A DNA stretch of 64,000 bases, taken from Halocafeteria seosinensis. Taxonomy: Eukaryota. How positions within the stretch are numbered: position 1 is the stretch's first letter; each line of letters opens with the position of its first letter. Below, one piece after another: positions 1 through 49,800 of the stretch. Location: contig LVLI01000005.1 in NCBI GenBank assembly GCA_001687465.1, positions 62,001-126,000 on the forward strand, read 5' to 3'. The notes under the pieces are model-generated. The model was not told the origin of the DNA. It was given only the letters and a program-made list of their open reading frames with translations, and searched no databases. Position numbers and translations under genes: made by a program.

Positions 1-694
1 GAGGCGGACTCGCAACAAGGAGAAATTGTTTAAGGTAAGACTGACATCGTGAAGCATAACGCTGTGCCCGAAGGATATTATGTCAGCTATCTTAATGAGA
101 ACACAGGGCTCCGTTTTTGTGGAATTCGAGAACAAAGATGACGCTCACAAATTCGTAGAGATGGCGACCTCGGAAGACGGCCTCCAATATGAAGGCAAAA
201 AATTAGAACGTGCCATGATGCAGAAAGACTACCTGGAAATGAAGAAGAAAGAAAGATTAGAGCAAAAAGAAAAAAAGTTGGGTTTTAAACGGGAGATGAT
301 CCCAAATTGTATTTTACGCCTAACCGAGGTAGGATCTGGCGCAACTTGGCAAACGCTTCAGAATACTCTTTCCAAGGTAGGAGATGTTAAATTCAGTGAG
401 CTAGATGAGCAAAACCATACAGCTTATTTGCGCTTTGCGGACGCCAACGAGTGTACGCGTGTGAAGGATGCCCTAGATGCTTCTCGCGAACATCCGGAAG
501 CGGAGGACACGAAATTCTCTGCCACCGATCTTGGAGGTGCTCTACCGAAGGCAGATATCCTCCAGGGAGAGGAAGAAAAGCAATACTGGGAGAAAATTTG
601 GGACAAGCAGTCGGCCCGTGTCCGCGAGAGTAGCAAACGTAAGAAAGGGGATAATCCTGGAGGCAGTAGTGCCAAAAGGGGTAGAAAAAACTAA
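1..694 (+). CDS. SSB: La (lupus autoantigen)-like RNA-binding protein, 5' truncated (end of RRM1 plus C-terminal RRM2)
   Basis: Removing GT-AG intron 35..106 joins RRTRNKEKLFK to GSVFVEF (La RRM1 RNP1-like). A second RRM ends in LQGEEEKQYWEKI, typical of the La-family RRM2 helix, followed by a basic NLS-like tail. Stop at 692-694. Confidence 0.85.
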
Positions 695-778
695 TAATCC
701 ACATGCATCCATTCATGTCACCGTATCCAATGCGCGTCTACTTGCGAGCACAAAGCGGCGTTGATTTGCGTGTAGATA

Positions 779-2323
779 TCAATAAGCTGTCGGTTGAGCG
801 ATTGGCTGTTTCCTTGTCCGGCCGCTATATTGGGCCACCAGGGAGAGGAGAAACCCAACAAATACTAAAGAGCATCCTGCTATCCGCCATTTGGTGAAGG
901 AGACGTCATTGAGTACTAGGTCAATCAATGCGTTTATTGGAATCCCTAGGGCTGTTCCCAGGGATATAAATATCGGATGCACGTACGCAATGCCAAAGTT
1001 GATCAGGAAGTTCGTCAGTAGCGCAAACACGGCAGATAGAGACATTATCAGCCAAGGCAACTTTCCGTAAGAGTAATCCTTTTCAATATCCAGTTCAGCC
1101 GCTCCAACAGAAAGGCCTACACCTATAACGCTGTTGACAAGTCCAAGCGCAGTGAGAAACCAAGAAACCTGCAGTACGTTAGCCCTGCCTAGGGCAAATT
1201 TACTCAGTGTCTTGTAGAGGGCTACAGAGCATGCCGCACCAAGACTTAAGAGGATCGGTTTCCATTCATATTTTTCGCTATCAACTTCCCACGGCGACAA
1301 CACTCCGACTACCCCCGCTAGGGTCACGATAACAGAAACCAGAAACATCACGGGATGTGGAATGCGAGACTTGATTAGTAGCATAGAGAAAAAGTAAACC
1401 CATAACGGACTTGTTGCAAACATCGAAGATGCAACAGTAGCGGATGTTGACCTCAGCGCTGTCGTATATAAAACGTATGTCGTAAACCATAGGACGTAGA
1501 AGGGAACGATGACCAATATCCAGCGAACCCACGGAGAGACTTCCCAGAACCAGGTTTGCTCCTCGAATTGCCCTAGAACAGCGCATTGACAGCACGCACA
1601 TGTTGTTCGAATACCAGCGGACCTTTGAAACAAGAGTGGGGACCGTTCTTTAGACGACGAATTCTGCCTATCCGTGCTGCTGTTTATCCAAGATCCCTGT
1701 AGTACAGCAAGCATCCTTTCTGAGAGAGTACTCGAAGAGCCTCCATCATTCACGCTAGCAAATGAGGTTTCATCCGCTGTGTATCCTAGAGAAGTATAAG
1801 TAGACTCGTTATGATTTGTTCGTTCAAAATAAAACATGGACGAGAGTATGCATGTCGGAATGAGAAGCAAGATATTCCAACTTGTGACGAACCACGCTAT
1901 GATTGTAGCCGGAGCTTCGTCCAAATCTTTATCTCCTGGAAATCTTTCCGATTCTTCGGAAGTCTGCAGAGAAAAAAAAATGACATCAATGATCATCTGA
2001 TATAATACGTGTGGTTCACTGTGTTTCCATCTCACCTGGAGGAGTTGTGTACTTGCCGCCCACGAGCATCCGATTGCAACTACAATGAATCCCTGAGCAA
2101 AGAGTTTGCCACATGATCTGGCATCATCTGGCAAGTATTTTTTAGTCTTCTGTGAACTCATTTCGTTATGAGGCGTCTTTGGCATTCGTCGGGAAGCATA
2201 CTGGGAATGCTGACCAAAGTCCTCCTCCTCGACTTCAAGTTTCTGCGTCGACCAAAACCCAGCATTGTCCTCATCGAACGCGTTTATGGAAGACTCACGC
2301 CTAAGGCCATTTTTGGATTCCAT
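779..2323 (-). CDS. EamA/DMT-superfamily (SLC35F-like) multi-pass transporter
   Basis: About 10 hydrophobic segments; motifs YTTALRSTSATVASSMFATSPLWVYFFSMLL and PIFISLGTALGIPINALID resemble SLC35F members. Probable in-frame 72-nt intron at 1964..2035. Confidence 0.8.
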   Translation of the reverse strand: MESKNGLRRESSINAFDEDNAGFWSTQKLEVEEEDFGQHSQYASRRMPKTPHNEMSSQKTKKYLPDDARSCGKLFAQGFIVVAIGCSWAASTQLLQVRWKHSEPHVLYQMIIDVIFFSLQTSEESERFPGDKDLDEAPATIIAWFVTSWNILLLIPTCILSSMFYFERTNHNESTYTSLGYTADETSFASVNDGGSSSTLSERMLAVLQGSWINSSTDRQNSSSKERSPLLFQRSAGIRTTCACCQCAVLGQFEEQTWFWEVSPWVRWILVIVPFYVLWFTTYVLYTTALRSTSATVASSMFATSPLWVYFFSMLLIKSRIPHPVMFLVSVIVTLAGVVGVLSPWEVDSEKYEWKPILLSLGAACSVALYKTLSKFALGRANVLQVSWFLTALGLVNSVIGVGLSVGAAELDIEKDYSYGKLPWLIMSLSAVFALLTNFLINFGIAYVHPIFISLGTALGIPINALIDLVLNDVSFTKWRIAGCSLVFVGFLLSLVAQYSGRTRKQPIAQPTAY

Positions 2324-20288: not shown

Positions 20289-20460
20289 AGTTCAGTCTCC
20301 ATGGGGCCTCATATGATAGGGGTCCAGTTCAGTCTCCATAGGGGTCTGAGTCCATACCAACTGGGAAATGAGAACTGTTGAGTTGTAAGATCTAGCATGA
20401 GTGCATCAGCTGTCCCTCTTTCCCTTCCTGTTTCAGTCATTCACCTCGTCAGAAAGAGAC

Positions 20461-21894: not shown

Positions 21895-22193
21895 GCTCTG
21901 CGTAGTATAAGCTTCTCCAACCCTCCAACCATTAATATCAAACGAGTTGAACAAAAGTTTCCAGTAGTTTGTAGCCCACTTGAAATCGTGCGATGTGTGC
22001 TGTGACTCAGTCAGTTTGTGAAGGTCTTGACGGAGTTGGTTTTGTGGAAAATGTGCACTACGTACTCTAATGAGTATTGACTAAGTGTGTTTTATCTCTT
22101 GTTCATAACGTAGCTAAGCATTCCGTTCTTGTTCTTCTTTTCTTTGACTAGCTTGTCGAGGGGCTCATTCGTGGTAGCGTGGTACTCTATACG

Positions 22194-25400: not shown

Positions 25401-26468
25401 TTAAATGTTCGTGAGGTCATCAGAGTGAAGAGCATGGCTAAATCCTGTAGAGCTGTAGTTGAACGTTGCCATCACTTGCACGGGATCTATTAGGGTGGGC
25501 TCCGCGGAAGAAGAGGTAGCAGGTGAAACCTGAGCTGCAGCGGATATATCGTCTGCTAGAGTAGCAGGAGTTGCAGCACTTGTCTTTTCCGATTTACCTT
25601 TCTTGCTAGTCTTCTGTAGCTCAGGAGGTGCTCCTCCCTGTTCCATCGTCTGCTGCATCCGCTTCTGTTTTGCCCTTTCGACAACCTCGGCGGCCTTATC
25701 TTCATCTTCATAATAGCCTAAATGAATGCGCTTTCCTTGGATGCGTAAGTATGCTTGCCATTTCCTTGCATTACGGTTCCAACTTACACAAGCGTATTTG
25801 GACGTCATTTTCTTTCCTTTTTTGTCTTCAACGCCATCTTGTAACCGCGTCTCCACCACACTCGGTAGCGGAGCATTCGATCGTCGTCGCTTATTTTTGT
25901 ACTGATTGTTCCCTTCCGACGAATTGGCAGCACTGGTACTATTGTCTTCCTGTTTCTTCCGTTTTGTTGAACCCGACCGAAGGTTTTTCTCCTGGTTCCC
26001 TGAAGTTGTAGGGACAGCAGCACTCACCATGCCAGGGGAGAACACATTCGTGTTGTCCATACTGAAGGACGATGGGCCTTCGCTCATACTGGAAAGCATT
26101 CTCAGCGAGGTCGCAAATTCGTCTTGTCCAGGGTTACCATAGTTGGCATTACCCGCATTAGGGCTTCCTTGGAACTGCATTTGAGGAAGCGGAAACATTT
26201 GCGGGAGCATTTCGTACTGGTTCGACTCGTTTGTAGGCGGAGGTCCAGAGTAATCAATAGTGCCGACTGTCGCCGAGCCACCAGTACTTGGAGGGAAAAC
26301 AATCATCGGCGTCATCTGATTCCATCCGGGAATTTGCTGGGTGAGTTGAGCCCATTGCTGAGCTGGAATCGGTTGAGCATGGTACGGGCTCCTGATGGAT
26401 TCATTGGCCACAGTAGACGTTGCTGGAGCTTGAGAGCCACCTTCGTGTTGGTTCTTCCTCCGGCTCAT
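25401..26468 (-). CDS. AP2/ERF-like DNA-binding domain transcription factor
   Basis: TSKYACVSWNRNARKWQAYLRIQGKRIHLGYYEDEDKAA matches the AP2 fold consensus. Flanked by Q/P/S-rich regions and basic NLSs (KRKK, KNKRRR). An acceptor-like site just before ATG 26468 suggests a possible upstream exon. Confidence 0.8.
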   Translation of the reverse strand: MSRRKNQHEGGSQAPATSTVANESIRSPYHAQPIPAQQWAQLTQQIPGWNQMTPMIVFPPSTGGSATVGTIDYSGPPPTNESNQYEMLPQMFPLPQMQFQGSPNAGNANYGNPGQDEFATSLRMLSSMSEGPSSFSMDNTNVFSPGMVSAAVPTTSGNQEKNLRSGSTKRKKQEDNSTSAANSSEGNNQYKNKRRRSNAPLPSVVETRLQDGVEDKKGKKMTSKYACVSWNRNARKWQAYLRIQGKRIHLGYYEDEDKAAEVVERAKQKRMQQTMEQGGAPPELQKTSKKGKSEKTSAATPATLADDISAAAQVSPATSSSAEPTLIDPVQVMATFNYSSTGFSHALHSDDLTNI

Positions 26469-27234
26469 TTTGGAGTCTGCAAATAAGATGAAAACACTTT
26501 GTCTAACTCCGGGTTTGCAAGTTGAAGGGCTTCCGGACGTTAGGAACCCCGCCACGCTTTGTACACCGCAGGGAGCAACAAAACTATTGCATCCTTAGGA
26601 ACGATACTATTCACTTGAACATGTATCTTGCATGTAATGAACAGTAGCTTTTTGCGACCTAGGTCAGGGCCTTATCACGTCCGCCTCAGACGTCCATCAG
26701 CTCATCTCTTTTGTCCCCTTTGAAATCCCCTCTGTCATTTCCCCACATGCATGCTCCAGAGGCATGTCGCTCAACTGACATTGTTTCATCAATCCTCGCA
26801 ACTTCATCCACTTGCCCCTTTCCTTTGAAAAGAACTTCCAAGAAAGAGAAACCACACTCTCTTCCCATGCCAGGTCGTACGAAAATGAACGCAAGGCAAA
26901 AGGTAGCAAATATAGGATGTGTGCGAACTCACGTGTTGCGATTGAGCAGCCCCTCTCTGTCTTTTTTCCACACACACAACCTCAAGCTCACGTTATGAGC
27001 CAAGGTATCCGGCCAAACACACAAAACCTCTAAAATAAACGTATCAAATCACGTTAGGAAGCTACAAAGCAGTCTTGTTTGTCATGAATAAAACTCAGTA
27101 GCCTGCGACCGAACGGTGGAAACAAACTGTCCATTTTCCGCACCCGGATGTGGAGACTCTTCCGCTAACATCCAGCTGCCGGTGGGCCATCAGTCACATC
27201 TTCGTCGACGTGAACACGTTGCATTTTCATTCGT

Positions 27235-31800: not shown

Positions 31801-34800
31801 TCCGAACGATGTCCATGCTCGTATGCGTGTGTAGACTTTTTCTCCAAGGGGTAAGCTGCATAGATTCAAGATCAGCTGTCCTCCTGCTCCCAGTGTAGGC
31901 AAGTCCGTTACATTACCCGATACTACTAATGAGGAGAACTGTACATCAGAAGCAAGCTGATATTCATACCAAAGTTGGCCCGTACTTCCAGTTCTTCTCG
32001 GAGCATCAAACAAAATTTGAACGCAAGACTCCCTCGAGACTTGGCTCGTAACCGATCTTGGCGCCGAAGGAGGGACCTCTTTGGTTACAGTTGATGGAGG
32101 CATTGAGAACGTCCACCGGCGGTTGGTAACTATTTGGCTACTGTTAGACACCCAGAGGGAATTGTCATCAAAGCTAACCGTGTTTTCAGCACTGACTCTG
32201 ACAAATATTTCCGTCCCATTTTGGATGCCCTCACCTTCATACGGAGAGGCTCCGGGAGAACTAATCCGGCTTATTAAGAAGGTCAAATCTGACCCAGGTA
32301 ATATGTTCTCAGCCGAGAGCGAATTAGATGAAAATTCCGATGTTGTGTCCCATTCTACGCGATAGTTTGTCAAAGAGGAGCCGCCATTTGTTGGTGGTGG
32401 CATCCAAGAGACCAGCACTGCTGACGACGAAAATGGCTCTATGTGCACCGATAGAGGACCATCTGCGATGCCACGAGGAACAGCTTGAATTGTCGAGCTC
32501 CATTCCCCGATTCCTAGTGTATTTTCTGCAGCCACTCTGGAGAAGTATTCTCGCCCAGGCGTTAGATCGCGTATGTGAAAGCAGGAAGCACATGCTTCGG
32601 AAGTTACGCGAACTATTGCCCCACTCAAAGACTCCCCAACGTTAAACCTAAACGCCCTGAATTGAATTGAAGCTTGTCCGGAATATCCAATAACGTCCAC
32701 AGCCCATGTTGGAGCTCCTTCTGGACTATAGAATAGCTCATGTCGGTCTGAGGTATCACCGGTAAAAATTGTAGGCGCATTGTGATCACTTGCTAGTCCA
32801 AGGGAAATGGCAGGAAACTCAAACGAACGCACGCGAAACTGGATACCATCTACTTGAATGAGAAGGCCTTCTGGAACATCGAACGTGAGGTCTCCCCTCA
32901 GATACACAATCGAGTCACCATGAGTTGCATTGACCACCACGTTAGCAGCTGGGACGAAAGTTTGTTGCTTAGTGACGTGTACTACATCGATTCCATCCAA
33001 TGACTCCAACGACATTCTTACTTCCTCTTCGGAGGAGTTGCATGATATGCTAACGGTGTCTGTCTCGGTAAGCCCAACGTCCACGCTACAATTATACACC
33101 CTGGAGAAAGGGGAGGCCTCCACTCGCACCAACTGGGTCATAAGCAGTGAATTAACATTGACTACCATTGCACCTCGGTTGGCCGAGACGAGGGAAGGTG
33201 TAGTATCCCACTCTATCACATAGCTAGCAATATTGCTCCCACCATCCCGTGGGGGCACATTGAAGCTTCCACTAAGTGCATTCTCCGTTTCTTCAATTGC
33301 TGTTTGGACAGTTCTCACAATCCCAGTGGCCCGCAAACCGCGCAACTCGGTGGTATCTATATTCAACTGTCTAATGTTGAGGTTCTCAAACGTTATCCTC
33401 CACGTAGTCTCACCTGTAGACTTCCAGTGCGTACTCGATACGAGTACACTACCGGTATCTAGCTCATCTTCTAGAGCATTTGCCATGTCGGTATCAGACG
33501 CCTGGTGGCTCAACAGCGAGGTGATGCGGTCTCCCAAACTCAATGAAAAGTAACCAGTGAGTTTGGACCCTCGTTGTTTCGTGGTAACGGACATTGCAGC
33601 GCCAGCACCTTCCAGAGAAGACACTGTAGACAGCTGTAAATCCTCACCTGTACCTGGAGGGAATGTTACAGTCCAGTTGTAACCTCCAACCTGGTTTGGT
33701 CCTACTCTGTCGACAAGTATATTCTCCATTCCAGTAACTCTGATAAGCTCCGTCTGTAGCAGGAGCGCAGACGAGTCGGGTGCCAACGAAACAGTACTCA
33801 CTTGAGAGTTGCTTAAGTGGTCCTTGACCCTGAGAAAGAAATGGCCTCCTATAAAATTTCTCCTAACAGACCGCTCAGCTGAGCACCTTCCATTATTTAG
33901 TAGATCGTCCGAACAGGTCATTTCTGCGCTTGACTTTCCAACGACATCGAGCAGGGTAATTGTCCAATCCACGCTTCCACTTGATGACCTCACTGTCGTG
34001 GATACATCCACATCATTGATTCCGTCCAACTGTAGAAGTGATTTCCGTATCACATCACTGGTAGAATTGGAGGCAATCGACACGTTACTTCCGCTGAGCA
34101 CTACCAAGACGCTACCTGAGACACCGCCTGTTGAAAGTGCTTCGATTTGGAGATGGAACACTTCAGGAATAAATAGTGCATCCGTGCTTACAACTTGAAT
34201 AGAGGGAAGCATCGCTACTCCAAGGGAAATCTCTTGGATACCATAGACACGATTTACATGCTTGAGTCGATACTCCAGAGGTGCCGAGGGCTTTCCAAAC
34301 ACAATAATGCTGGCGGGATTAGACCAGTTGCCCTCGCCGACTTCGTTGCCAGCCCTTACTCTAGTGTAGTATCTTGTGCCTCCAACTACATCTTGGACTC
34401 GACTATGCATAGGCAGAAGAGACTCCTCCACATTGTCATGGATGTCCAGAGAAGCATTGGTCGGAGTAAGGTCGACATCCACTGGGTCAAGTTTGTTTTG
34501 GTTGCCCAAGTGAGACTGAAACTTCACTGTGTAACCGAAGCCATTAACAACGAATGCTTCATAGGTGCCTGATGGCAGGGCAACTTCCTCGGTGAGAATA
34601 AGCGTTGAACTGGTGACCAGTGGCCTTTCCATGACAGCATGTTCAACCGAAGTAGTCACTTCGTTTCCAGTTTCACAATCCACAACTGTAACATTGAACT
34701 GTTCGGACAAGAAAGTCAAACGATGCCAAAGGATATCATCCTCTTTAATTATAGTAACGACTATATCTGAATCATTGATAACACTAGAGATCTTCTCCTC

Positions 34801-37800
34801 GACAGATATAGCAGTGGCGTTGATGGGAAAGCAGGAAGTTTTCAGTGAAAGCCCCACAAATTGATAGCTGACATTCAATCCTTCTTGGGCACTCGAGAAC
34901 CCCAAAGCTGTTTGAGCATGTGTTGCTGATGCAAGACATGTAACTTCACTCAGCATCCATAACTTTGTGTCAGATAGTTCACCGTCAAAGCTGGGTCCCT
35001 CGTAGGGTCTATCTACGACGAAGCCGCTGCGCCCATTATCGACAACACTTGTCGCGACTGACACATTCTCGAAGCTGGATAGGTTCAGCAACCCACATTG
35101 TGTAGACAGCGTGGCCGTTAACAGGGATTCACCAGCCATTGTGATTACATTCGTTCCCGTAAACCTTAATGTAAAATAAGTTACATTAGCTTCCGATTCC
35201 TGCGCAACTATTACTTTCCCACCGGTAAGCGACGTAAGTAGTTTTGACAGTGATTGGGATGAGGCATTGGAAGGTATGCAAGGAGATACCACACGCACCC
35301 CCGCCGGAGGGGTCCAGGAGAACACCAATCCTACGACGGTGTCTGCGACAATCGTCACATTTTGGATCAATTCACCCAGATCCACCACAGAGGCACTCCA
35401 GTTGTATATCCGCACATTTTGACCTAGATACAACTGATGCCGCTGCAGATCCTCAAATCGGATAAAGTCGTCACCGGTTCTGACCGTAACCCTCCCGAGC
35501 TCATAATTTGGAACATCCATTGAAAAGTAGCCGCGAGTTGCTCTTGGCTCGAACCTGATTTTCGATTTTGCATCCAAGTAAATACTGCTGTCTGTCATAT
35601 TGTTATCGAATGTAACCTGAGAAGAGCCATGCGCTAGTGTGACATTCCCGAGACTCCAGCCAAAGTGCTCGTTTCTTGTTACCATAACTCTTCCCACACT
35701 TTCCAGGTCTTCTAACCTGGTCGCCATCAAATCTGCGGAGGCAAAGAAGGGAATCTCTTCGGTAGTTTTGTTGTTGAATTTCAACTTGTAGCTTCCATCC
35801 AATGGGTAGGAAAAGTCAGACTCCATAGATACTCTGGCTCTTGCGTTAGAACCTTGAAGTCGTGAAGTTGTCTCGAAAAACCCCACGTTGCTTGTTCCTG
35901 GGGGATAGGCCAATCCCTGAATGAGCCCGGGAACGGATCGTATAATCAGAGTATACCGTATACCTCCCATGGTTGGTGTGAGAACGGGAACTCCTTCATG
36001 TCCAGCACCAAAGTTCGAGTTCTTCCGTACAGAGACATCACCAACATTGCTTAGCGACATGACCGCTATTCTGACTCGTTGAGAGTCCTCATCGAAACGG
36101 AGGACAACAGGACCCCTGTTATTGCCAGCAAGATCCACTTCAAATTCTCCTCCCAGAGCTTGGCTCCCCGACTGTATCTCCACAACTACTGCGTCCCCAG
36201 TGAGCTGCTCTTGAACAATTTCCAACATTTCTCGATTACCCGCTCCTGCAGGTAGCATGCCAGCATTATCTACGAAGGTGACAGTCCAAGTTACTCCCCG
36301 GAATCTTCCCATTAATTGTCTGCTCACAAACGCTTTATTGATGGAGCTGAGTGACGCTAAAGCATTCCGCAACTCCGATGCTGAGGTGTTGACTGTTAAT
36401 GTTCTCTCGGTACTGCTGATTGTGTCGTTTAACCCCCACTTTCCAGACGTAACTAGCCCAGGTTGGATTTCTTCACTGACAATGGAGAAGGCTGTCGTTG
36501 TGGAATTTCCCTCTAACAAGCAAGTGGAGGGGCTACAGACGCAATTTATTCCTCCACAAAACGTGTTGTCAGTAACGACAGAAAGGAGAGGTACGTCACC
36601 TGGGCTATGGCAACTGAGGGGACCAGTAGGGCAGTGGGCAGTCCAAGGATCGCGCTTGAACGTAATACTCCATGTATACGCCCCCGTGAAAGGAGTACTA
36701 CTCATAGCCCTGCTCACCTCTACATCTCCGATATTATCTAGCTCTTCAAGTATGACCTCCACTGAATTCAATGGATCCTCCTCCCTTGTGGGTTTCGCGT
36801 CGTGGCGAATGGCCCGTGTTGTAACTGATTCGCACACCAACGGTAATCCTAATTCGATGGCGGTGTCACAGTCATCGAGAGTAGTGTTGAACCTCAAACG
36901 GAAGTAACCATTCACAGGAGCTACACCGGTTTCCAAAATTTCAGAGGCACAATTTATCATCGAAAAGTCAGAGTTTGTTGTAGACAATGTGGAAGAGCGA
37001 CACGAAATTTCAAACGGTAAAGGGCCAACATTCTCACCCCATCCTCTGCTAAACCCGGAGCTCCAGTCTTCTACGGAATCACCAGAGAAAACATTTGAGA
37101 CAAACGTGACTCTCCAGGTGTATGCTTTTACTGTATTTGATTCCCCTTCCAACAGGATGCTGTCAGTACGAGATACCTCAATGCTGTCTGTAGTCGGCAA
37201 CGCCTCCAAGGCAGCTCTCACGGCAGCGCTACTCGCATCGAACAGAAGAAGAGACGTGACGGCTCCTTTGTAAGACAAACGAAAACCGCCGCTCAATTGG
37301 TTTCCGTTGGTTACCGTATTAATAACGACGTCCGTGGAAGCCTGTGAATTGGTTCCGCGAGTGTTGTCCTCTACCTGGAGCTGCGGAATGTCTCCTCCAT
37401 TCAAATCGTCCTCAAATGTAATCCTCCAAGTGTATCCCTGTACACTGTTCGGTTCAGCATCTACGGAAACCGAAATATTCCCAATAGTAGATATCTTCTC
37501 TAGCTTCTCTTGGATTTGTGAAGTAATGTTGTCTCTAAGGAGGCTAATTCCTTCATGAACTAACGTGATGCTCTCCGTTGATTCATTATCGAAGGTTAGC
37601 TTAAACGACCCCCTTACTGAGTTTCCTTCTTGCACTGTTTCTACTGCTGCAGAAGCATGCAGGTCGGTCTTATCAGACGATGATACCATAAGGGAGGAAA
37701 GGATTTCCATCTCAGGTACGTCTCCGTCACTGCCTTCAAACTCTACCGTCCAGCGATAGCCACCTGTCCAGCCTTCACCCAAGAGGGGAGCTAACTCCCT

Positions 37801-40800
37801 CCTGGTGACAATAACTTCCGGATGAGGGCTCCCATCTTGCTCTGATACCAACTGATGAATAAACTCCTCCATTTCGCTAATTGTAGCGTTTGCCCGCAGG
37901 AATAACGAATCATCTGAGGGAGCATACCCTGGTATCGATATTCGGAAAGTCGAATTTTGATCGATAAATTCTCCCTCCTGGCAACCATAGCCTCCTGTTT
38001 CGCAGAGATTTTCGACAATGTAAATATTGCTGTTCGTCAGATTGCTCGAGACTTCAGTAGGTACCAATGGTCGAAGGTCGCCGTCTGTTGCAAGGAACTC
38101 AATGCTCCACACAAATCCACCTGCGTGATCGGGGCCTTCCCGTGTAACGTTGACGTTATCCAAGTGGGGCAACGCATTCAAAGCAAACTGTATGCTGCCT
38201 GTGCCTGTGGCCGGGCTGTTAAACGCCAGTGTGTTTGTGGAAACAGTGTCGCCTGACGCGAAGTCTGTATAGGTCAGAAAAAAATCACCTTCAACTATTT
38301 GGTTGCCTTTTGTAACCCGGCTAATGCCAAGCGGATCAATGTCTGGACAGCTGTCCGCACCCTCGCAATCCGTACGTGGAATCCTATGATTTTCCGGAAT
38401 TAGAGCACTATTTGGGATTACCCCGTCTACAGCTGACCCATTAAAAACAACTAAATATTGTCGAAAATTGCTGTCGTTTAAGTTATCTACCCGTGATATC
38501 TCCACATGACCAGCCAGCTCACCCTGATTGGAGGAAAAATGGACTTCAAACTCATCCGGGAGAAATTTGGTGGGGAACTCAACGTTATACTGACAACTGG
38601 AGAGCTCCTCCTCTCCCGAACTGGTACCACACTTGCATATTCCAGAGGTTCCCTGAAATCGGCATTCATTTATGTCAAAACGAACAGTCACAGTGACGTC
38701 GTCGTCATCAAACGACATGTCCGTTCTTCCTGAATTGTAAGATATCACAAGTCTATCCTCAAAACTCGTACCGCTCGAGGGGAATTCACCAACCTGAAAC
38801 TCAGAACCACATTCTACTGTCAACTTGTCTCCAGAGACGGATACAGTCGGAGATGCTGTGCCGAAGAACGTCGAAGGATCAGAAAAATAGTCATCAATCT
38901 GTTGCTTAATGTCTAGGATATCAGACGAATTGTCCACAAATATAGGTACCGCTTGCTCAACATCAAAAAGAGTTCCGGAAGCATTGAAGGCAAATGTTAC
39001 TCTAGAACTGTTTGATTGCTCTTCGCCGCAATTCACGAGGAACTCGAGTGAATGCAACATCAGAAGATCGTCGGTAAACAATTCCAGCTCCACTATTGCA
39101 GCTCTACCTGTGTACTCATCCCTTAACGTGATCATCTTGACCTCATCAACATCTTCCGATGTAGTCTGAATTCTTTGTATTTCCCTCCGAGGACCTGATG
39201 GGTCTGCCCCGGAAATCAGGTACTCCGTAGCATTGGTGAACGTTACGATTTGTTGCTGTTCGGTGACAGACTGCCCAGTTGCCGTAACCGACTGGACCTC
39301 ATTTACCCGCTGAGCGAATGTTGAAATAGATTGAACCTGCGGCTCAACAGGATCCGATTGTATTGTAACCGTTTGAATTTCGTCTCTCCCACCTATGTCG
39401 AGCGATATAGCCTGAATCTCATTTAGAACGTCCGTGACGACATCAATGTGCTGTTGCTGAGGCTCGACAGAACTTGTCAGATTGATATACTGGCTCTCCG
39501 GAGATACAGAGAAGAACGAACGACTAAAAGAGTCAAAGGAACTGTCCATTGTGTAATCTAGAGTGAAGCTCTCTAACGTCCTTCCACCATCGTACAAAGG
39601 AAGACTCCACATAGCGTCGAAAGAAGTTGTACTGTGTGGACTCAATTTAAGGTCAACAGGGGCAAATGGCACTCGACGAGTGGGCACTGCCGTCGGAGGG
39701 TCTGTCACTGCAATGGCACCAAATCCCTCCGCGCTTACTGCCATAAGCCGGACCGCATACTCCTTACCCGGTTCCAATGAGGAAGAAACATTACCAATGG
39801 TGATAGTGCGCTCCCCAATAACAGCCTCGAGTGGTTGACTAGCGTTGACAATCATGGACTTCATTGGAAGGTCTGTTACCTTCGAGAATGTCCTTTCCGT
39901 CCACTCGATGACATAATACAGAATAGGAAGTCCCCCGTCTCCCCCAAAGTGAAATCCTTGGTCTGAAGGAGGGTCCCAACTAACCTTCAACTGAACGTCA
40001 CTGAGAACACCCAACTTCGCGTCAATGGGAGCCCCGGGTCTTAGTGTTCGGGGAATAGCAGAAAGAATGTTACTGAACTCACCGAAACCTGCAGCATTGG
40101 AAGCCCTAACACGGAAGTAAGTGCGTTTGCCTGTTTCTAGACCAGCAACATTGTAGAAAGCCTCCTGAGAACCACTCCAAGCCGATATCCGCGCAGAGTT
40201 AAACTTGGAAAAATCTACGGACTGACTCCATTGCACTTCATAGAGATTTATTCCGAAGGCACCCTGGGGTGGCAGTAGCTTCCAGATCACTTTTACCTTT
40301 GACTGAGAGAGGATAAGAGCTGAAAGCAGCTCCACGTCATCTGGAAGGGCGATCACCGTTTGCGGCTGGGTAGCTGCCGAACTTCGTCCAACACCTGCCT
40401 CCAACGAAATCGAGGTGACCCGGACACTATATTCAAAACCGGTGGCCAGCGGACCCACTGTGTATGAGACTCTGTTCCCAGATGTCGATCCTGGAACAAT
40501 CCTGCTTCCGTACTGTGGAGACGTTGCTGCGGACTGGAGCAGGTGGGACTTGGCGACAACGTCCTCACCAATTAGTCCCGCCTGGTGAATGACCAGCGCC
40601 CTCCGTTCGCAGCAAGGAGCAGCAAATGTAATCATCCAATCGAATCCATGCACATTCAGATTACGTGTAACTTTGATCGTGCCAACGGATTTAAGTTCTT
40701 CTATAGAACCGGCCAGAATGGCACTGGAGGCGTTGTGAGGAATGGGTCGTGTGCGCTCGTTCCCTAGACTTAGCCTAAAAGTGCCCCCGATGGCGTACTC

Positions 40801-43800
40801 TCCTTTCTTTACAACAAAAGCTGCTATATTTACGTTCGACCCATCTATTTGAGTAGCATTTGTCACTTCAAACAGTGGTTGGGGACCCACATGAAGCTGG
40901 CCAAGGAATGTAATTTCCCACACGAAGCCATGTCCAGGGAGAAACACGAGGTATTCGGAGAAGGTTGGGCCCATGAATTCTCTGTCAAGGACTAAGTGAG
41001 TTACGTTGTATGACACCACCGCAAATTCGTTGGCATTTTGCACGTCCCCAAATTCGATTTCAGAATATGCTGCCAGACGAATCGTCATGCCATTTATCAG
41101 CTGGGAAGTGATATCCTGTGCGTCACCATTGACTTTGAGGATATTGCTGTTTTGCTCTGCACCAAAAGTCCCAAGCATGCGCACCCAAGAATCAAAGCGT
41201 CGAACGGAAACCTGCCCAATGTTTGGCATCCTAGTGAGAGTATCCCCTAGCTGTGAGGCAGTTGCTTGGAAGCTTATTGGTTCACTTAGCTTGCCTCCAA
41301 ACTTAACTCGGAAGTTACCGGAAATATCGTCTTCTGTGGCAGTTGTCTTGAGGCCAACAACTTCCCTAATTGGGGCCGATGCTCCGATTGTAACGACGTT
41401 TACCCGTTTTTGAGGAGCTTCGTCCCACCATTCGACTTTATACTGGCTAATAACCGCGCCTCCGGTATTTGAAGGAATTCCCCATTCAACTACCACCTTG
41501 TCCAACCCTTCCTTATACGTGGAAACTGACGATGGCTCAGCCGACTTTGTGATGACGCTTTGGGAGGCAGTCTGACTGGGAATACTAAAGCCTTGAGAAT
41601 TCCCAGCGAATACTCTACAAAATTGTTTCTGTCCCAATGGCAGCTCTTCCATCCGTGCTTCTAGAGGACGAGATCCTTTCACAACTCTAAGTGACTGCAC
41701 TTGAGAATTAAAAAGCAAACCTTCGGGATTATCTGACAATTGTAGAACCAATAAAGGAAGTAGTTCTGCTCCGCGTTCGGGGTCATCTGTAGTGTGAGTA
41801 AAAGTGACAAGCCACTCGATTCCAAATCGAAACCCAAGACTAATGTCTGGCTTGATAGCGCGCTCGAAGTCAGTTACCACTCGCTTGATGGATCGGGACT
41901 TTACGCTAACAGTTCGAATCACAGGTATCGACTGTAGTTCTTCTTGGACTTTTGTGTCGTTTACAGGGAGATCAAATTGCACACTATACCCACGGAATGT
42001 TAGGGTAACCGTTGCATTTCCGTCTTCAAGAAGAAACAATGCCTCTTCTTCACTGTTGGCTGACATTTCGATTGATAGTGACTGGGTTTCAAATGTATAC
42101 GCGTTAGGCGAAATGTCCGCATTTCCATTCTGCCTTTTCCAGATGTGAGTGTGCAGCCCTGTCCCTCGAAGACCCGAGGAATCTATTGAAAGTAGCTCCA
42201 GATTACCACGCGGTCGACTGAACGTAACGACCCAGCGGAAACCGTTGTGTCGGCTTGCTCGCGTGACTCCTATGGGGATATCGGCAATTTTGTAGAATCC
42301 CAGGATGTTAGCGAGCTCCGAACCGAGTGACTCAGCTGTCACGTTCCAGGGGAGCCTCCAAGTTTCGGCTGCTCCAAATGATAGTAGAAAGAAGCCGCCT
42401 CTGCCTTCCTGGCTTCGGAAAGTAACATCTATGACCTGTATATCGTCTTCTATAGCATATGTTGAAGAGCGTGTGACGTCATCCCCATAAAAAGGGGAAA
42501 GAGAGCACTCAAGGAGATATTGAGATACTCTTTCGCCTCCTGAGTACAACGGTGGCCTCCAAAAGAAAGTGAGTCCAGCATGCATGCTGTCTTGCACCAG
42601 AACTAGATCTCTTGGACTAGATGATGGTTGTGCAAATTCTGGAGTCTCCACAGAGGCAGTTGCAATTTTTCTCCATGCCTTTTTGCTTCTTGCATACACA
42701 ACCGACTCAAGTTTCTCGTTGTTAGGCAATGCAAGGTATGATCCACTCATTCTCCGCAACGGCACGACGGGTCTAAGCAGATCTACCAACACCACTTCGT
42801 CTACAAAAGGGAATGAACCATTTCCGCACACAACTGGCAGGAGTAAGGGGATAGTTTCAAAATGGTTGCTTTGCCCTAGGAAAGTAACGTAGAAGCTTTC
42901 GTCTTTCTCAACAACTACTGTGTATAGACGACAGTCCGCGGAGGAATTGCGACACCCCCACCTACGAAAGAGTGTAGATAGGTTCTCTTCTAACTCAGAG
43001 ACAGGCAATCCCCAGGAAAGGCAATCCTCCGTAACTTCGTTATCTAGGGAAATTTTGAACGTGATATCATCACCATCTACGGGTGAAGACATCGGCAAAC
43101 GGAGAGAAACTGTCTGAATAACAGCGTTTGTTCCTACAGTTATCGTGTCAGCAGGCTCTTCAGGACCGTCTATCACCAGATGCGACCCAAGTGCAGAGAC
43201 ATCATTTTGCTGAATTCTCAGAGACTCCAAAGGAGCGTCGGTGGAATCAAACGCAAGATACCATTCGTAGCCATCTGTCTGTTTGAAACCGCTTCCTTCA
43301 ACAACTTCCCCAAACGTCCAGATTGCAGGCGAACTCGGATCATCACGATCACAGATGCAATAACCGGGAGAGCAGTCCTGGACATTACAGAATGAGAGTT
43401 TGATTCCATTCAACATTATCATTTTGCCAGCACAATCTCCAAGCTCACTTGTCGAGAACAGCGTAGACGAATTCTGGTGAATGGTTATCCTTCCTCCAAT
43501 TTCTCTCCAGGATACGTCTCTGGCCACGCGCAGTGAGCCGACATGGTTGAAGGATCTCAGTATCCGGGAAACCTCTACTGCCGTATCATCAACATGCAGA
43601 AACTCACTGGTACTTTCCTCCAAAGACAGTGTGAAACCGCCAGAGAGTTTTCCTCCAGAACTATAAGCAGACAACCTCACTACTGGCAGTATGTCGGCGC
43701 GAGCATTAATCCCTCCTAGGGTAGAAAAATCTACCCATGGGGTAGGGTCACTGAAATCGCTCTCAATAACCCACATTCGTCCCTCCAGAGCGGTTTGCTG

Positions 43801-46800
43801 AAACACTTCATCAACTGGGAAGATTTCTACCGACCCAAATACCTCCTGCAATTGGGACTTGATTCTTGACGGAGAATCATTTACAAAAATATGAACTTCC
43901 TCCGAGCTAGAAAACTTCAGCGAAATGCTTCCAGTTAACGAATGACCCGTCGCCACTGACAGCACTATGGCAAAGCTCTTCCTGCCAGAAGGTAGACATG
44001 GAAACGATGAGGCTTCATCTCGTTGAGTGCACCGATTGCGCGTGTTTGCGGGCGGAGTCTTGACTCTAACTCGAAACTCATGGTCTTCTATTGTTTCACT
44101 CAGAATACTAGCTGACACTTGTGGTAGAGAGCCCTCCCCACAGCTCAGGAATGAGCTTTCGACGGTAATATTCGTACCCTCCGGATGAAGGAATGTCCTA
44201 AGCTCAACTGTAGCTTCTTTCCTCGATGAAGTAGCCGTTCCAAATGTCACGGAACTATTGGATACAAAGGAAAGTAACGACAATATACTTGAAATTTCAG
44301 AAGAAGAAGAATTTACATCCAGTAGAGGTGTAAGGAAAGAGTCCTCGTCATTTTGGAACTTTAATCGGTAACTTCCAAATATAAAGCCCATGGAGCACTC
44401 CAGTGAATACGATGCCTGTATCTTACCTTCAGTCAGAGTTTTACCCATTACAACGTCTACCACGCTAATGAAGCTAGATAACGGACTGTTCAAAGTCAAC
44501 TCAGCGCTGTGGGCATTCAAGCTGCCTATTGACGCAGACACTGGAACCGGAGGTGACTCAGCAGTCAGCAGAAATGGGACAACGGGAGTTTGCGGTCTTC
44601 CAGAACCTTGTGAATTAACCATTTTAGGACCAGTTGCGGACCTACCGGTAGAAGCCGCTGTAGCGACCAGATGGTCTTGCGGGGAAAATGAAAACTTTGC
44701 CAATTGGTTAGGTTTAATAGGCTGTTGAACTTCCTCCAAAAACAGATGGACGTCTCCTCCAGTTACCGTGTGGAGATCGATGCCCCTAACCCTGATAGTG
44801 GAAAATATTTCGGAACTGCTGCAAAACGTAACTGTCCAATTGATTTCCGTGCTGGCAGAATTAGCTTCTCGGTGCACTTTCGTTGAGCCGATGGACGGCA
44901 AACCTAGTGTCAGTAAATCTCGTAACTCATCAGCGGATGTATCAGAATATACTGTGAGTATGCTTCCGTTACTAAAATCGGATATGGCAAAGCTTCCTAA
45001 TATTTGGCTCGTCGCTGAAAGCGAGATTCTACGAACAGCAGGTGTCGCGCTATCCAATGTGTGTAACAACGATGAGTTGAAGTCTTCAGGGGAAGAGGGT
45101 CGAACGACAATGGTAGAGACATTTATCTCGGCTGTTGGTGCTACCGCTTGCCCCAAAAGCCCTGTATCGTTTGCGGTCGATGCCTCGTTGCTGCTAGTGA
45201 AAGTTATCAGCCAGTCGTACTCATTGTTTGCCGTAGGTCCAAATCTAGTTACTTGTACAGTTGCAACCCCAGGGAGACTTTGTAAGGCAGCCACTAACTC
45301 AGACCCTGTAACTGATATGGGCACAGTAACCCATGCTCTACTCCTGACAGAGAAGGCCCCCACTAAACTTACGGGCCTATCAAGTTCCACCAGCTGCACC
45401 CTGTCCCCAACAACAGTTATATTTACAGCTGCGGCTACAACTTCGTTGTTAAGTAGCAGGGGATCTTTTAATACGACGTCGGTGTCAGTGTGCAATATAA
45501 TAGTGCGATCTTCTCCAGGTAATAAGACTGCTGGTCCTAACGACGTCGACTCTTGTCTCAGTGAGACCGATTGCTCATTTTCAGGATGCTCCCACTGAAG
45601 GTAAATTCTATCTTTTCCAATCGGTTCCTCGGTATTCTCGGATACTCTATTTAGGTGAGATCCTACCATTACTACATCCCCGGGAGCAAGCACTTCACGC
45701 AGATCAAACCCTCCTACGACGAGATACGCCCTCCGTGGATGGTCAGATAAGTCTATTTCAATACAACTGCCACAGAGCAATCGAGAAACCTCCCCTTGGA
45801 AATTCCAAGAAAGTCTCATAGTTAAGTTCTCATCCAAGCGCTCACCGGTAATGGAGCGTGTACTCAGTTTGGTGACCTCTGGAACGAAGAAAGTTTCGCC
45901 AGGCTGAAGCCGAACAACGTTGGACGTTGGTGATATAACGTTCCCTTCATTATCCTCGAACATGGAGCACCCGTTCTCGGAGAAGATGACTTGAATAAGG
46001 TCAATCGGAGGTTGCACGGATGGATCCATGAAAAGCACCTTAAATCCTAGAGTCGACGGCGATTGATGCTCGAGCTGACTGTGAACGTCATTAGACTTTA
46101 ACATCCACGAGAGAGCTGCATCAAGTTCGGCTTCTGTTGCACTAAAGTCTATGCATGTACTCAATGAACTACCCAGCTTAAGCTGAAATTGACCATCAAA
46201 GACATCACCATTCGTGGTCACGTTGACAAGCTGCTGTTCTTGCTGTCGCGTAGCACGTCCGGCTGTAGAAAAACTATAGGCTACAACCTCGTCGCCACCA
46301 CTTCCAAAAGCAGATAAGGTATGCGGACGGAAGATGCTCAACTGTGCTCTAGAGGTATCAACTTGCTCCAGCTCCGCAAAGGCAGGTGGTCGAGGTGGTT
46401 CCCGCGGAGTAAAAGGCCCCGCAACTTCGGAGGGAGCGCTGTACCTTGAAATGCCTGCGGCAATATCGATGACTCTGACCACTCGAACCCAATACTCGCG
46501 ACCAAACAACAGCTTGTCATTCTGCAAAACTGTTTTAGTTTCAGCTGCATGAATTTCAATCTCAGGCCGATTCATGCTTGCGGTGCAGTCAAAACTAAAG
46601 CGCTCAAAACTATATCCGCGACCGCCTTCGAAAGAGACAGAGCTTGCCAAATCTTGATTAGATGCACGTACTAACATAGAAAAATCCTCAATAAGTTCAT
46701 GGAGATCTTCCGTCTCGATCAAAACATCTGGAGGAAGAGTTGCGTATTCAATCGTCAAACACGCACTGTAATTCCAATGGGGTGAAAAGTCTCCTTGGCT

Positions 46801-49800
46801 TCTGACATTCAGTAACTCGAAGACTCCTTGCTCAGATATTGCGTTTTCAACGACTGCCTCGTCGATTTGGCTATCCAGGGATATGGAGAAAGTAATGCTG
46901 GTATTCCACTCGGCAATGCTAGAGCTCCAATTAAGAGTTATGTTTCGCTCCCCACTTGAGGACAGATCCAGTTTCGAAAGCTTCAGTTGAGTTGTGAGGG
47001 GTTGCTCCCCACAACGGCTTGAGAAAGTGTCGAATGAATCCAGTTGTAGAATGAACTCCTGAGATGACTCCATTGTATCGCTGGACCAACTGATCATTGT
47101 ATCTCCATTTTCCTCTTGCTGAATTCCTATAGCACTAGGTGGGGTTACAACGGTGCTCACCGGCACCAACGCCACCAATGGGTGCGCAGAAAGTTCTGGC
47201 CACTCAATTAGATGCATCTGATCCCTCACTCCAGCAACTACAAATTCTCCGATTCCCACATTGTTTGCCGCCGCGACCCTGGCGAAGAATTTTCCTGTAA
47301 CAGCAAGATCGGTAACCGTTTGCGAAATCATCTGCATTCCGTCCCGTAAATGGTTAGTCCCTTTGATGACTTCGAATACAGTTATTCGTGGATTGTCAAT
47401 ACGCATCAAAGGAACGTCGCCTACATGTGACTCATACCGGATGAGCAACTCCTCTCCCTGGCATATTTTGCTCCCATTATTCAACGGCGTTATATCACCG
47501 ACAAAAGTGATAGACTGTAACAGTTCTACAAACGCGTTGACGGAGATGTTTACTGGAACGTGCTGGAGACTGCGTCCGAATATCTCAACGTTGAAGTACG
47601 AACCTTCTTGCTCGTAACCAGAAAGGCATTTGATTCCTTGAACTTCCCGCACGGAGCCGCTGGAAGCAGAAACAGGGCTACTTGTTACGGAAAAGAGACC
47701 CGTTGCGTCTACAATCAGGTCATGTACACCCGACCGCAGGGCACTGACAAATGTTATAGTCCAAGTATAACCATGAAAAGGTCCGGCATTCTCCATCAAG
47801 TAGGAAGATCCTCGATGTCGCCTCCTTTGGACTGATACGTCTATCACGTCAGGTAAAGACTCCAAGGCGCTCTCTACTTCGCTCGCCCCAGCATTCCAGT
47901 CTAACTGTGGAGTTCGCTTTCCATAATAAATTAAGGAAAACGTTCCGCCAATGCCAGTTGAAGGGGAAGTAACAGTGAAAGACTGGATATCAGGCTGGAC
48001 TATCATCTCTGGGCGGACGAACTCGGAGCGCAGTGGCTTTCCTTTTCGCGAGTCAAAGCCCAGAGAAGAATCGACTTCCAGCAGGTAGTGTTGCACGGGA
48101 GAACCTCCATCTCGCAGAGGAGAGTCCCATTGGATTTCGATTTCACCCGCCTCGAGCGGCCGCATGTGCACCTGCAGTGGGGCTGATGGTGGGACAGTGT
48201 GAACGTGAAATGGTGATGGGTGACCATCGACCACCTCGGAAAACCCAAACCTGTTCGCTATCTTGACTTCTGCGGTGTACAACACGTTTTCGCGTAGACT
48301 TTGCAGTAATACCTCCGTCACCAACGAGATGAGAAGTGAGGCCCTGCTGGCATCTGTAGCAAGCACTGTATTGCCGGCAACAAGTAAGGGGCCTGGAGGA
48401 GCTGAAGCAAATGTGATACGCCATTTAAACCCGGAAGAGGCCAGGGATCTTCCAACGTGGACCAAAGATACGGATGGCAGTTTTTCTAAGAGATGTTTGA
48501 TCTCCGCCGCGGTAGCGGTTGCACGAATTGGCGAAGTGAACTCTGGAACGTAGAGAGGAGCAAAAAACGCTTCATGGGCGGGAAAAGTTGCATGGCCCAT
48601 ATCTTCATCAAATAAAGCAATAACGAGATCTTCTACTTGGGATACCTTGAAGATTGTTTCCGAGTCATGTCCTATGCGGACGAACAAACCATCAGGGATA
48701 CTCGCTCGAGACACTTCGCTCACTACGGAGAGGTCGTGGGCATTACGGGAAACATTGATGCAACCCCAGAGCGTTGATTCGCGGAAAACAGGTTGCAATA
48801 TCAGTGAAGTTCCCTCATATGTGGCAGGAACTCCCGTACCGGGATGCCCGAGCGTAATCGATCGCGAAGTGACATTGAGTACTCGAAACATTTGATTGTT
48901 CACTAGGATCCGCTCAGTGGGACACATGACTTTGTCCAGATTGTTGCACCCATTCTCGGAACTAATAATCATGCTTCCGTGATCGAAGTCGAAGAGGCAA
49001 ATGTTACTACCACTCTCAACTTTGTTGACGAAAGTGCCATTGAAGGCACCGATAGCTAAAGTGAAATGACCACCAGTTACTGGTGCAGCGTTGGTTGAGA
49101 TCTTGACCTCATGGATGTCATAGCGCAGCTGCTGTTCTATCCTAGATGTGACTGTACTGCTGTCGGAGACTTCAACAACCAAAGAAGTGGCATCTCTTGC
49201 TGGCGTGAATCCATCCATCGGGTACAGAATGTCCATTTTTGCAGTCCGAGTATCAAGAACTTCCACTGTTGGGACTTCTGGAGTGATCGGGAACTTGCCA
49301 AGAAGTAGCCCATTATCCAGATACGTCCAATTGCTGATGCCTAAAGGGGTTCGACTTGATAACCGGACCCGGTACCGTATGCCTTGGACCAAACCATCTA
49401 GCTGGTGGCTGTGCAAGTCGGTGGCCGAGCTTGAGTTGACTACATCTAGCTGATAATTGTTGGGCCAGAACCCCTTATCTCCTTCTTCCGCGTAGAGGAC
49501 ATCCACTGACAGCGTCGGGAGCGAGAAGTAAGTATTTGTTATAAGCAACGGCTGCGTCGAATTGGTAATGAAAAAATCATTGAAGGAGACTCTGAACTCC
49601 CGCGTGAAGTTAGATGGTACTGTTTCCGAAACAACCACCCGTCCAAGTCCAGGAAGGCGTCTTAGAGAACTTTCAAGATAGTCTACAGTAGCATTTGGTT
49701 GAATCCATTCGGTTGAACTCACTCTTGAAATCCTCAAAGCTGATGAAAAGGAGGGGAACACAAAATCGACATCTTTCGAACAGTTGCGGTAATCTGCTAA

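Follow-up and report, generated by a model that had tools for sequence, protein, structure and literature searches.

Recursive insertion of protein domains has been described before. In the Si3 insertion of the β′ subunit (RpoC2) of cyanobacterial RNA polymerase, a small domain is recursively inserted in its own copies inside a host domain, reaching six levels with branching nodes; the accessible part of that report, in which 2.7 million classified domains were surveyed, gives these six levels as a showcase of nesting (PMC13114784). Contractile tail sheaths contain a "Russian doll" of up to four different domains within a polymerising subunit, as outlined in the available sections of the source (PMC6088184), and in the flagellin of Geovibrio thiophilus domain D5 is a duplicate of D4 inserted into a D4 loop, a case of self-insertion according to the accessible portion of its description (PMC11532411). 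Here, we analyse a 64,000-nucleotide stretch of the Halocafeteria seosinensis genome (GenBank assembly GCA_001687465.1, contig LVLI01000005.1, positions 62,001–126,000 of the forward strand; hereafter "the window"), in which a single FN3 domain of a giant protein is split by a long insert. This insert very probably folds as a nested in-chain arm, in which nine modules pair in reverse order inside the split FN3 domain.

The insert lies in a minus-strand open reading frame (ORF; 28828–63999) of 11,723 amino acids (aa), which is stop-free, fills the right half of the window and has an open 5′ end that runs off it; aa numbers are positions in this ORF, other coordinates are window positions, and all features of the ORF are on the minus strand. 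One of its FN3 domains is interrupted by 1,700 aa. Profiles place the N-half at aa 8111–8162 (39514–39669; the FN3-N profile match itself spans aa 8111–8149) and the C-half at aa 9863–9900 (34300–34413), and the two halves touch in a predicted model; going by the standard FN3 layout, the former presumably comprises strands A, B, C and C′ and the latter strands E, F and G. The insert holds, in this order, nine EVQ-type strands (S1–S9), a tip insert and nine strand-less module bodies (B1–B9), the ninth with a side branch. The strands form an outgoing arm (39127–39498), recognised from the motif run and seen as strands in the models, and start about 13 aa apart at aa 8168, 8181, 8193, 8206, 8220, 8233, 8247, 8272 and 8285, with successive gaps of 13, 12, 13, 14, 13, 14, 25 and 13 aa. 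When a strict pattern was applied with motifs no more than 45 aa apart, the longest run of EVQ-like motifs in the ORF was 8, compared with at most 2 in 500 shuffles.

The bodies were mapped with an iterated profile that started from ten modules of the protein itself and took in relatives. This profile matches at aa 8571, 8684, 8797, 8903, 9031, 9196, 9283 and 9402 (eight bodies, within aa 8571–9470); a search upstream of the seven scoring at least 14 bits (all except the one at aa 9283) revealed no strand motif. A ninth, divergent body at approximately aa 8430–8566 scores 7.9 bits, compared with a maximum of 2.7 bits in 60 shuffles, and is the innermost one, B1 (38296–38709). It is followed by B2 (GDFFLTY; 37957–38295), B3 (STFRISI; 37618–37956), B4 (GSFKLTF; 37297–37617), B5 (GGFRLSY; 36916–37296), B6 (GYFRLRF; 36451–36915), B7 (GKWGLND; 36160–36450) and B8 (GGEFEVD; 35803–36159). 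The last body is split: a hairpin, a helix and one strand occupy its first part (GSYKLKF; aa 9402–9448; 35656–35802), and its closing strands follow at aa 9818–9854 (34414–34554), both parts being placed by profile and by a three-piece model described below. The side branch between them (34555–35655), which contains a beta-rich segment and two divergent modules recognised by profile and by their own strand-like motifs, holds about five modules in oomycete orthologues.

These features were first pointed out in a prediction made from the sequence alone (hereafter "the original prediction"), the quoted motifs of which were all found in their places, on the minus strand and in a single open frame. 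Its FN3 domain split by approximately 1,700 aa was recovered by profile, with the halves close together in the three-piece model, and the mapping of strand-less bodies with a profile of intact modules, which it had proposed, gave the eight matches above. It had counted about ten consecutive strands followed by about ten strand-less bodies; the succession of array and bodies holds, and the count is corrected to nine and nine. Likewise, one longer gap (25 aa) is present among the strands, the other spacings being 12–14 aa and not 11–13 aa. The motif AAIVELE, taken there as the tenth strand, instead opens the tip insert between S9 and the B1 hairpin (aa 8292–8430; 38710–39126). The tip insert has no module similarity (0.5 bits, a value equalled or exceeded in 12 of 60 shuffles), is modelled with low confidence and is lineage-specific, being missing from most orthologues; a tenth strand and a tenth body were rejected. 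Near aa 9550 and aa 9700 lie the two divergent modules that had been listed as strand-less bodies; each is preceded by a strand-like motif, as judged by eye, and both belong to the side branch in B9. A depth of about ten levels holds if the FN3 host is counted together with the nine modules, the modules alone giving nine.

The order in which strands and bodies pair was addressed with two AlphaFold2 models, each computed from an alignment of 37 sequences, from which several orthologues that were near-redundant or very long had been left out to limit its size. In the truncation model (aa 8160–9028, containing S1–S9 and B1–B5; mean predicted local distance difference test [pLDDT] score 71.7, predicted template modelling [pTM] score 0.45), S5–S9 form strands with a block pLDDT of 82–90, and S1–S4 form none, with a block pLDDT of 61–70 and of 38 for the first block. 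That S1–S4 stay unpaired when only B1–B5 are present is the opposite of what forward pairing predicts. In the rescue model (aa 8178–9377, containing S2–S9, B1–B7 and most of B8; mean pLDDT 70.0, pTM 0.41), S2, S3 and S4 are strands (block pLDDT 71–88). Superpositions of 72–118 residues on solved single domains start in one strand and finish in one body, and give six distinct pairs, all of the form S(i)–B(10−i). In the truncation model, numbered from aa 8160, the ranges are 124..408 (S9–B1), 108..518 (S8–B2), 72..741 (S6–B4) and 59..868 (S5–B5); in the rescue model, numbered from aa 8178, they are 67..613 (S7–B3), 54..723 (S6–B4), 42..850 (S5–B5) and 15..1100 (S3–B7). The partners of B6 and B8 would, by exclusion, be S4, which is a strand only with B6–B8 present, and S2, which is a strand in the rescue model.

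The base of the arm was modelled from three pieces (the FN3 N-half with S1, the N-part of B9, and the C-part of B9 with the FN3 C-half). This three-piece model scored 0.75, compared with 0.00 for the best control, with runs sharing at least 87% of contacts and a partner pLDDT of at least 76; in calibration, 51 of 78 solved pairs attained the mark, as did 2 of 108 mismatched pairs. Its confident interface includes S1, the closing strands of B9, which are modelled against S1, and the B9 hairpin, and its tightest contacts are those between the FN3 halves. The predicted models thus support reverse-order nesting, in which strand i would complete body 10−i, with a discontinuous FN3 host around the insert and inserted domains that are themselves hosts closing in reverse order. 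No solved structure of the nest region is among the PDB matches listed.

Conservation of the nest was examined in an alignment of 16 long orthologues from oomycetes, Cantina and metagenomes, picked for coverage and within a size limit. All nine strands and their near-constant spacing are kept in all 16, and all nine bodies are spanned in 15, the remaining sequence (P0053) ending early. In addition, 65 proteins of at least 1,000 aa were recoded with tokens for FN3 halves, for strands (S) and for bodies (B). The resulting strings are bracket-like, with forms such as (SB), (SBSB), (SSBB), (SSSSBBBB) and (S9 B9...), and contain 401 closed FN3 pairs in 57 of the 65 proteins, 174 of them empty and 227 filled. 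Strand and body counts are equal in 137 of the 227 filled pairs and differ by at most one in 210 (rho 0.90), and the bodies never outrun the strands so far in 136 of the 137 equal-count pairs, compared with a mean of 46 and a maximum of 63 in 1,000 shuffles.

Depth variants follow the same pattern. An orthologue from a marine transcriptome (P0074) has 13 strands and 13 strand-less bodies, and its additions are all on the tip side, with four extra strands after S9 and four extra bodies before the body next to B2. A multicopper-oxidase-like surface protein of Chloroflexi (MBI3979136.1, P0136) has eight strands and eight bodies at aa 785–1590; the strands comprise one divergent first unit and seven near-identical 13-aa units, and the bodies seven near-identical 87-aa bodies and one divergent last body, as would be expected of a host module around seven copies. 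An FN3-free protein of 7,591 aa (P0050, JGI) contains 14 consecutive strands and then branched sub-nests at aa 233–4100; a second run of seven strands lies near aa 5331, and this nest is the deepest and most tree-like among the cases found. When 185,579 prokaryotic genomes were searched with the Chloroflexi stretch, 154 matches and three loci were obtained, the loci all being plain tandem modules without arrays; viral contigs searched with the strand profile yielded 33 pattern matches, none of which was confirmed. A Christiangramia cadherin-domain protein (P0109) with 30 strand-like matches and no bodies was excluded as an unrelated repeat. The two main expectations of the original prediction, that the strands pair with the bodies in reverse order and that strand and body counts co-vary across orthologues, are thus both supported: the former by the truncation and rescue models, the six superposition pairs and the predicted closure of S1 with B9 and FN3, in agreement with reverse and not forward order, and the latter by the correlation above and by the 13 + 13 and 8 + 8 cases.

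Three other arrangements were weighed against the in-chain nest. The strands may complete the bodies of a neighbouring copy of the protein by donor-strand exchange, in which case the region would polymerise or cross-link. The pieces of the three-piece model do assemble as separate chains, inter-chain strand donation is known for chaperone–usher pili, and a secreted giant without a membrane anchor could form a lattice. We nevertheless consider this improbable, since S9 runs directly into B1 in the manner of an intact module in most orthologues, the insert is flanked by the FN3 halves, and the equal counts, the bracket-like order within each FN3 domain and the tip-side gain in P0074 all follow from in-chain nesting. 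Pairing within the chain in forward or promiscuous order is somewhat less probable still. The strands are alike, and in the Chloroflexi protein near-identical, which means that sequence alone need not fix the register; however, all six assignable superposition pairs are in reverse order, truncation leaves S1–S4 and not S6–S9 unpaired, and the divergent strand of the Chloroflexi protein comes first and its divergent body last. The least probable of the three is that the bodies fold unaided as ordinary tandem domains and that the array next to them is either a beta repeat that pairs with itself or a linker of low complexity, rich in threonine and valine, an idea to which the repetitiveness of the array and the extended S1–S4 at moderate pLDDT in the truncation model lend some colour. 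It is countered by the folding of S2–S4 only once more bodies are added, by position-specific sequence and spacing kept in every aligned orthologue, by three array-free bacterial proteins in which most bodies are directly preceded by a strand, and by the presence of the first strand in the solved homologous domain.

A number of points weigh against the nested in-chain arm. Its structural support is prediction throughout, and single-chain models cannot separate it from strand exchange between chains. The pairs were taken from the first and last aligned residues of superpositions and not from a contact map; three rows of low Z score (13..1156, 14..1156 and 15..1167; Z ≤4.9) end inside B8 and allow no clean assignment, and both S4–B6 and S2–B8 are deduced by exclusion. 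The three-piece pass used no alignment and may reflect memory of FN3 folds, and its model does not discriminate S1 from S2. With pTM scores of 0.45 and 0.41, the two larger models leave unfixed the angle between modules and the rigidity that the original prediction had proposed for the arm. The co-variation counts take in many orthologous copies that are not independent and thus describe a pattern and not a p-value; token calling overlooks divergent units (33 of the 227 filled pairs are 0/1 or 1/0, and large nests are off by up to 6), and intact strand–body modules satisfy the order test trivially. In P0074, two of the extra strands rest on a count by eye, and the scores of two extra bodies are weak (11 and 13 bits), yet above 60 of 60 shuffles.

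The module itself has relatives in phage particles. A profile of 12 intact modules matches the tail tip cage protein gp23 of mycobacteriophage Bxb1 (9d93_Ma, E 1.4e-18), and the Bxb1 capsid protein (9d9w_Aa) at E 0.057. PHROG 10909 (major tail protein) is matched at E 1e-4; two intact modules searched alone match no PHROG, and no Pfam family covers the module. When S5 and B5 are rejoined as modelled, they superpose on a contiguous capsid domain (9d9x_Ha 305–397; Z 9.9, root-mean-square deviation [rmsd] 2.3, 90 residues aligned), on 9d93_Ma (Z 13.6, rmsd 2.8, 117 aligned), on the C-terminal domain of 9d94_Jh (192–283; Z 8.9) and on a protein of phage Patience (Z 9.1), and more weakly on tail-sheath segments, flagellin and FliD (Z 4.5–7.3). 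The module is thus predicted to share the fold of the Bxb1 C-terminal-extension (CTE) domain, first strand included. Foldseek with the 869-residue model returned nothing at E ≤0.001, the best matches being FliD 6iwy (1.2e-3) and 9d93_Ma (1.4e-3), and the ESM Atlas gave unnamed clusters, mainly eukaryotic, at 0.93, an uninformative result because recognition stayed under its threshold value. The neighbourhood is eukaryotic and the orthologues are from stramenopiles, which points to a shared fold only and not to a role in a phage particle. The name CTE-like follows a report, the accessible part of which mentions three CTE-like domains (PMC13252515). In 9d93_Ma, profile matches at aa 280–608 are ordered N-part, N-part, whole, C-part, C-part; from this order, the sequence suggests that Bxb1 gp23 may be a solved three-level nest of the CTE module through a later loop.

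Compared with these systems, the present nest shares its principle with Si3, which differs in its hybrid-motif fold, its cytoplasmic enzyme and its length of approximately 550–690 aa (in the accessible part of PMC13114784). The nest described here has a different beta/alpha fold, lies in a likely secreted eukaryotic protein, and would have ten levels including FN3, with one outgoing strand per level; no hybrid-motif entry (SBHM, HABAS) is among the matches listed for the module, which has a helix and matches CTE best. The Bxb1 CTE domains resemble the module by profile and by fold (Z 8.9–13.6), but are virion surface domains in one or three copies, and the apparent nesting in gp23 uses a later loop, the one that splits B9 here, and not the loop after strand 1. 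Tail sheaths share the out-and-back nesting, and the module superposes on 8kee_C 91–186 (Z 7.3, rmsd 3.0, 90 aligned) and 8fvg_A 87–210 (Z 6.5), values below 8 that may reflect a common arrangement alone. Superposition is also weak on flagellin 9au6 (Z 6.2, rmsd 7.2) and FliD 5h5w (Z 4.8), and D2–D5 of Geovibrio flagellin differ in that they are part of a filament subunit with mixed folds, of which two copies are self-nested. Oomycete and algal entries named "titin" or "FN3 domain-containing" (Albugo F0VYU3, Saprolegnia SPRG_03974 and SPRG_04153) are orthologues or paralogues with the same split FN3 domains and nests; the label "titin" rests on FN3 content and size, and no paper on the architecture of these proteins was found. 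In mostly open literature, no description was found of nesting in the giant-protein family or of nests beyond six levels, the deepest found in print, as the original prediction had supposed, although the supplementary tables of PMC13114784 may hold deeper cases. The principle of recursive insertion is therefore already known; new here are the conserved eukaryotic family, the depth of ten levels, which exceeds that found in print, the identified phage-type module and the natural depth variants, by which the mechanism is tested.

A mechanism for the nest can be proposed from the geometry of the module. Each copy of this module of approximately 100 residues would sit in the first loop of the preceding one. 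The first strand of the module would begin beside the end of its last strand, so that a module could replace a host loop; with adjacent ends, it could enter FN3 loops, the first loop of another copy of itself, giving the main nest, or a later loop of such a copy, as in the side branch of B9 and, it seems, in gp23. With repeated insertion into the first loop, the outgoing chain would contribute a single strand at each level and the returning chain the bodies. Folding may start from the tip, where S9 meets B1, and proceed like a zipper towards the base, the FN3 domain being the last to close. The resulting arm would be approximately 40 nm long (nine levels × 13 residues × ~0.33 nm), with two chain crossings per junction, and levels would be gained or lost at the tip. 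Such an arm would likely act as a spacer that keeps the variable tip insert off the FN3 backbone of a secreted scaffold.

Other nests occur in the same ORF and its relatives. The next FN3 domain contains three strands and then three bodies (33202–34299; sequence and token calls); here, the insertion lies between the first strand and a PPRDGG motif, a second FN3 insertion site, and orthologues have four and four. A two-level (SSBB) nest in another FN3 domain (aa 7488–7985; 40045–41538), the first body of which is interrupted by a beta-rich insert, recurs in most type-B orthologues. Beta-rich inserts that resemble a second repeated unit also break module bodies at aa 4980–6360 (~44900–49100), for example at aa 5020–5060, 5100–5140 and 6100–6140, and similar segments are found in the B9 side branch.

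The part of the ORF inside the window contains filamin, PA14 and FN3 domains by Pfam search, interspersed with approximately 50 EVQ/CTE-like modules, and no I-set or kinase family. Titin of animal muscle consists of intracellular Ig and FN3 super-repeats plus a kinase domain; the giant ORF does not have this composition, and its orthologues start with signal-like sequences. Relatives were found by sequence search in Pythium, Albugo, Phytophthora, Aphanomyces, Saprolegnia and Thraustotheca, as well as in Thalassiosira, Ectocarpus, Choristocarpus, Aureococcus, Cantina and many metagenome proteins, a distribution that makes a stramenopile the most likely source of the window. The first ~3,500 aa match filamin/PA14-type relatives, and the sequence from aa ~5,500 onward matches a second group, ~7,500 aa long with signal-like N-termini. 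The junction of the two types (aa 3500–5530; ~47400–53500) is in one frame here; in oomycetes the filamin/PA14-type and FN3-type giants are separate entries, the latter with its own signal-like start, and P0022 spans the junction. Filamin/PA14-type paralogues (P0013–P0019, P0047, P0123 and P0158) start with two FN3 domains, each with a four-strand nest. The full-length protein is probably longer than 14,000 aa. Signal-like N-termini were seen by eye in P0002, P0007 and P0051, and no 19-residue window reaches a Kyte–Doolittle (KD) value of 2.0 in the ORF, the N-terminus of which lies outside the window; judged from sequence, the protein is likely secreted.

The gene content of the window is eukaryotic by inspection. 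By eye, we take 779–2323 to be a nucleotide-sugar-type transporter-like gene, 17735–18862 a lipase class 3-like gene, 20401–21894 a tubulin cofactor C/RP2-like gene, 22179–25034 a gene for a DUF1538-type membrane protein-like product in two ORFs, and 25401–26555 a gene for an AP2-like DNA-binding protein.

A broader and speculative proposal, which we hold to be rather doubtful at present, is that stramenopiles share an ancient, titin-sized secreted scaffold with a bracket-like grammar, in which a phage-type module nests in FN3 loops and in itself to give arms of 2, 4, 9 and 13 levels, and of 14 levels with branching in a related FN3-free protein. These arms would grow by insertion at the tip, would set a fixed length of approximately 4 nm per level and might serve as a molecular ruler in some structure at the surface, for example the flagellar hairs by which the group is defined. 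A connection with stramenopile flagellar hairs is guesswork, based on the distribution and on one non-significant match (E 0.48) to the tubular mastigoneme protein OCM6 (9ufe_FA), on which no paper was found in the literature.

The nest described here would place ten levels, including the FN3 host, in a eukaryotic family kept from oomycetes to Cantina with near-constant strand spacing, and it is overlooked by domain databases, since the module is absent from Pfam and as many as 1,200 residues can separate a first strand from its body. The nest opens a question of folding to direct test, in that nine strands would have to remain unpaired during the synthesis of up to 1,700 residues before zipping began at the tip. 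A ready series for this question exists in the natural depth variants (2, 4, 8, 9 and 13), with the eight-level nest of MBI3979136.1 as the simplest construct for experiments, and the arrangement suggests a route to single-chain spacers of set length. It also links a surface domain of mycobacteriophages to giant proteins of bacteria and protists, and, for the unstudied "titin-like" proteins of oomycetes and algae, may provide a first point of entry to their structure.

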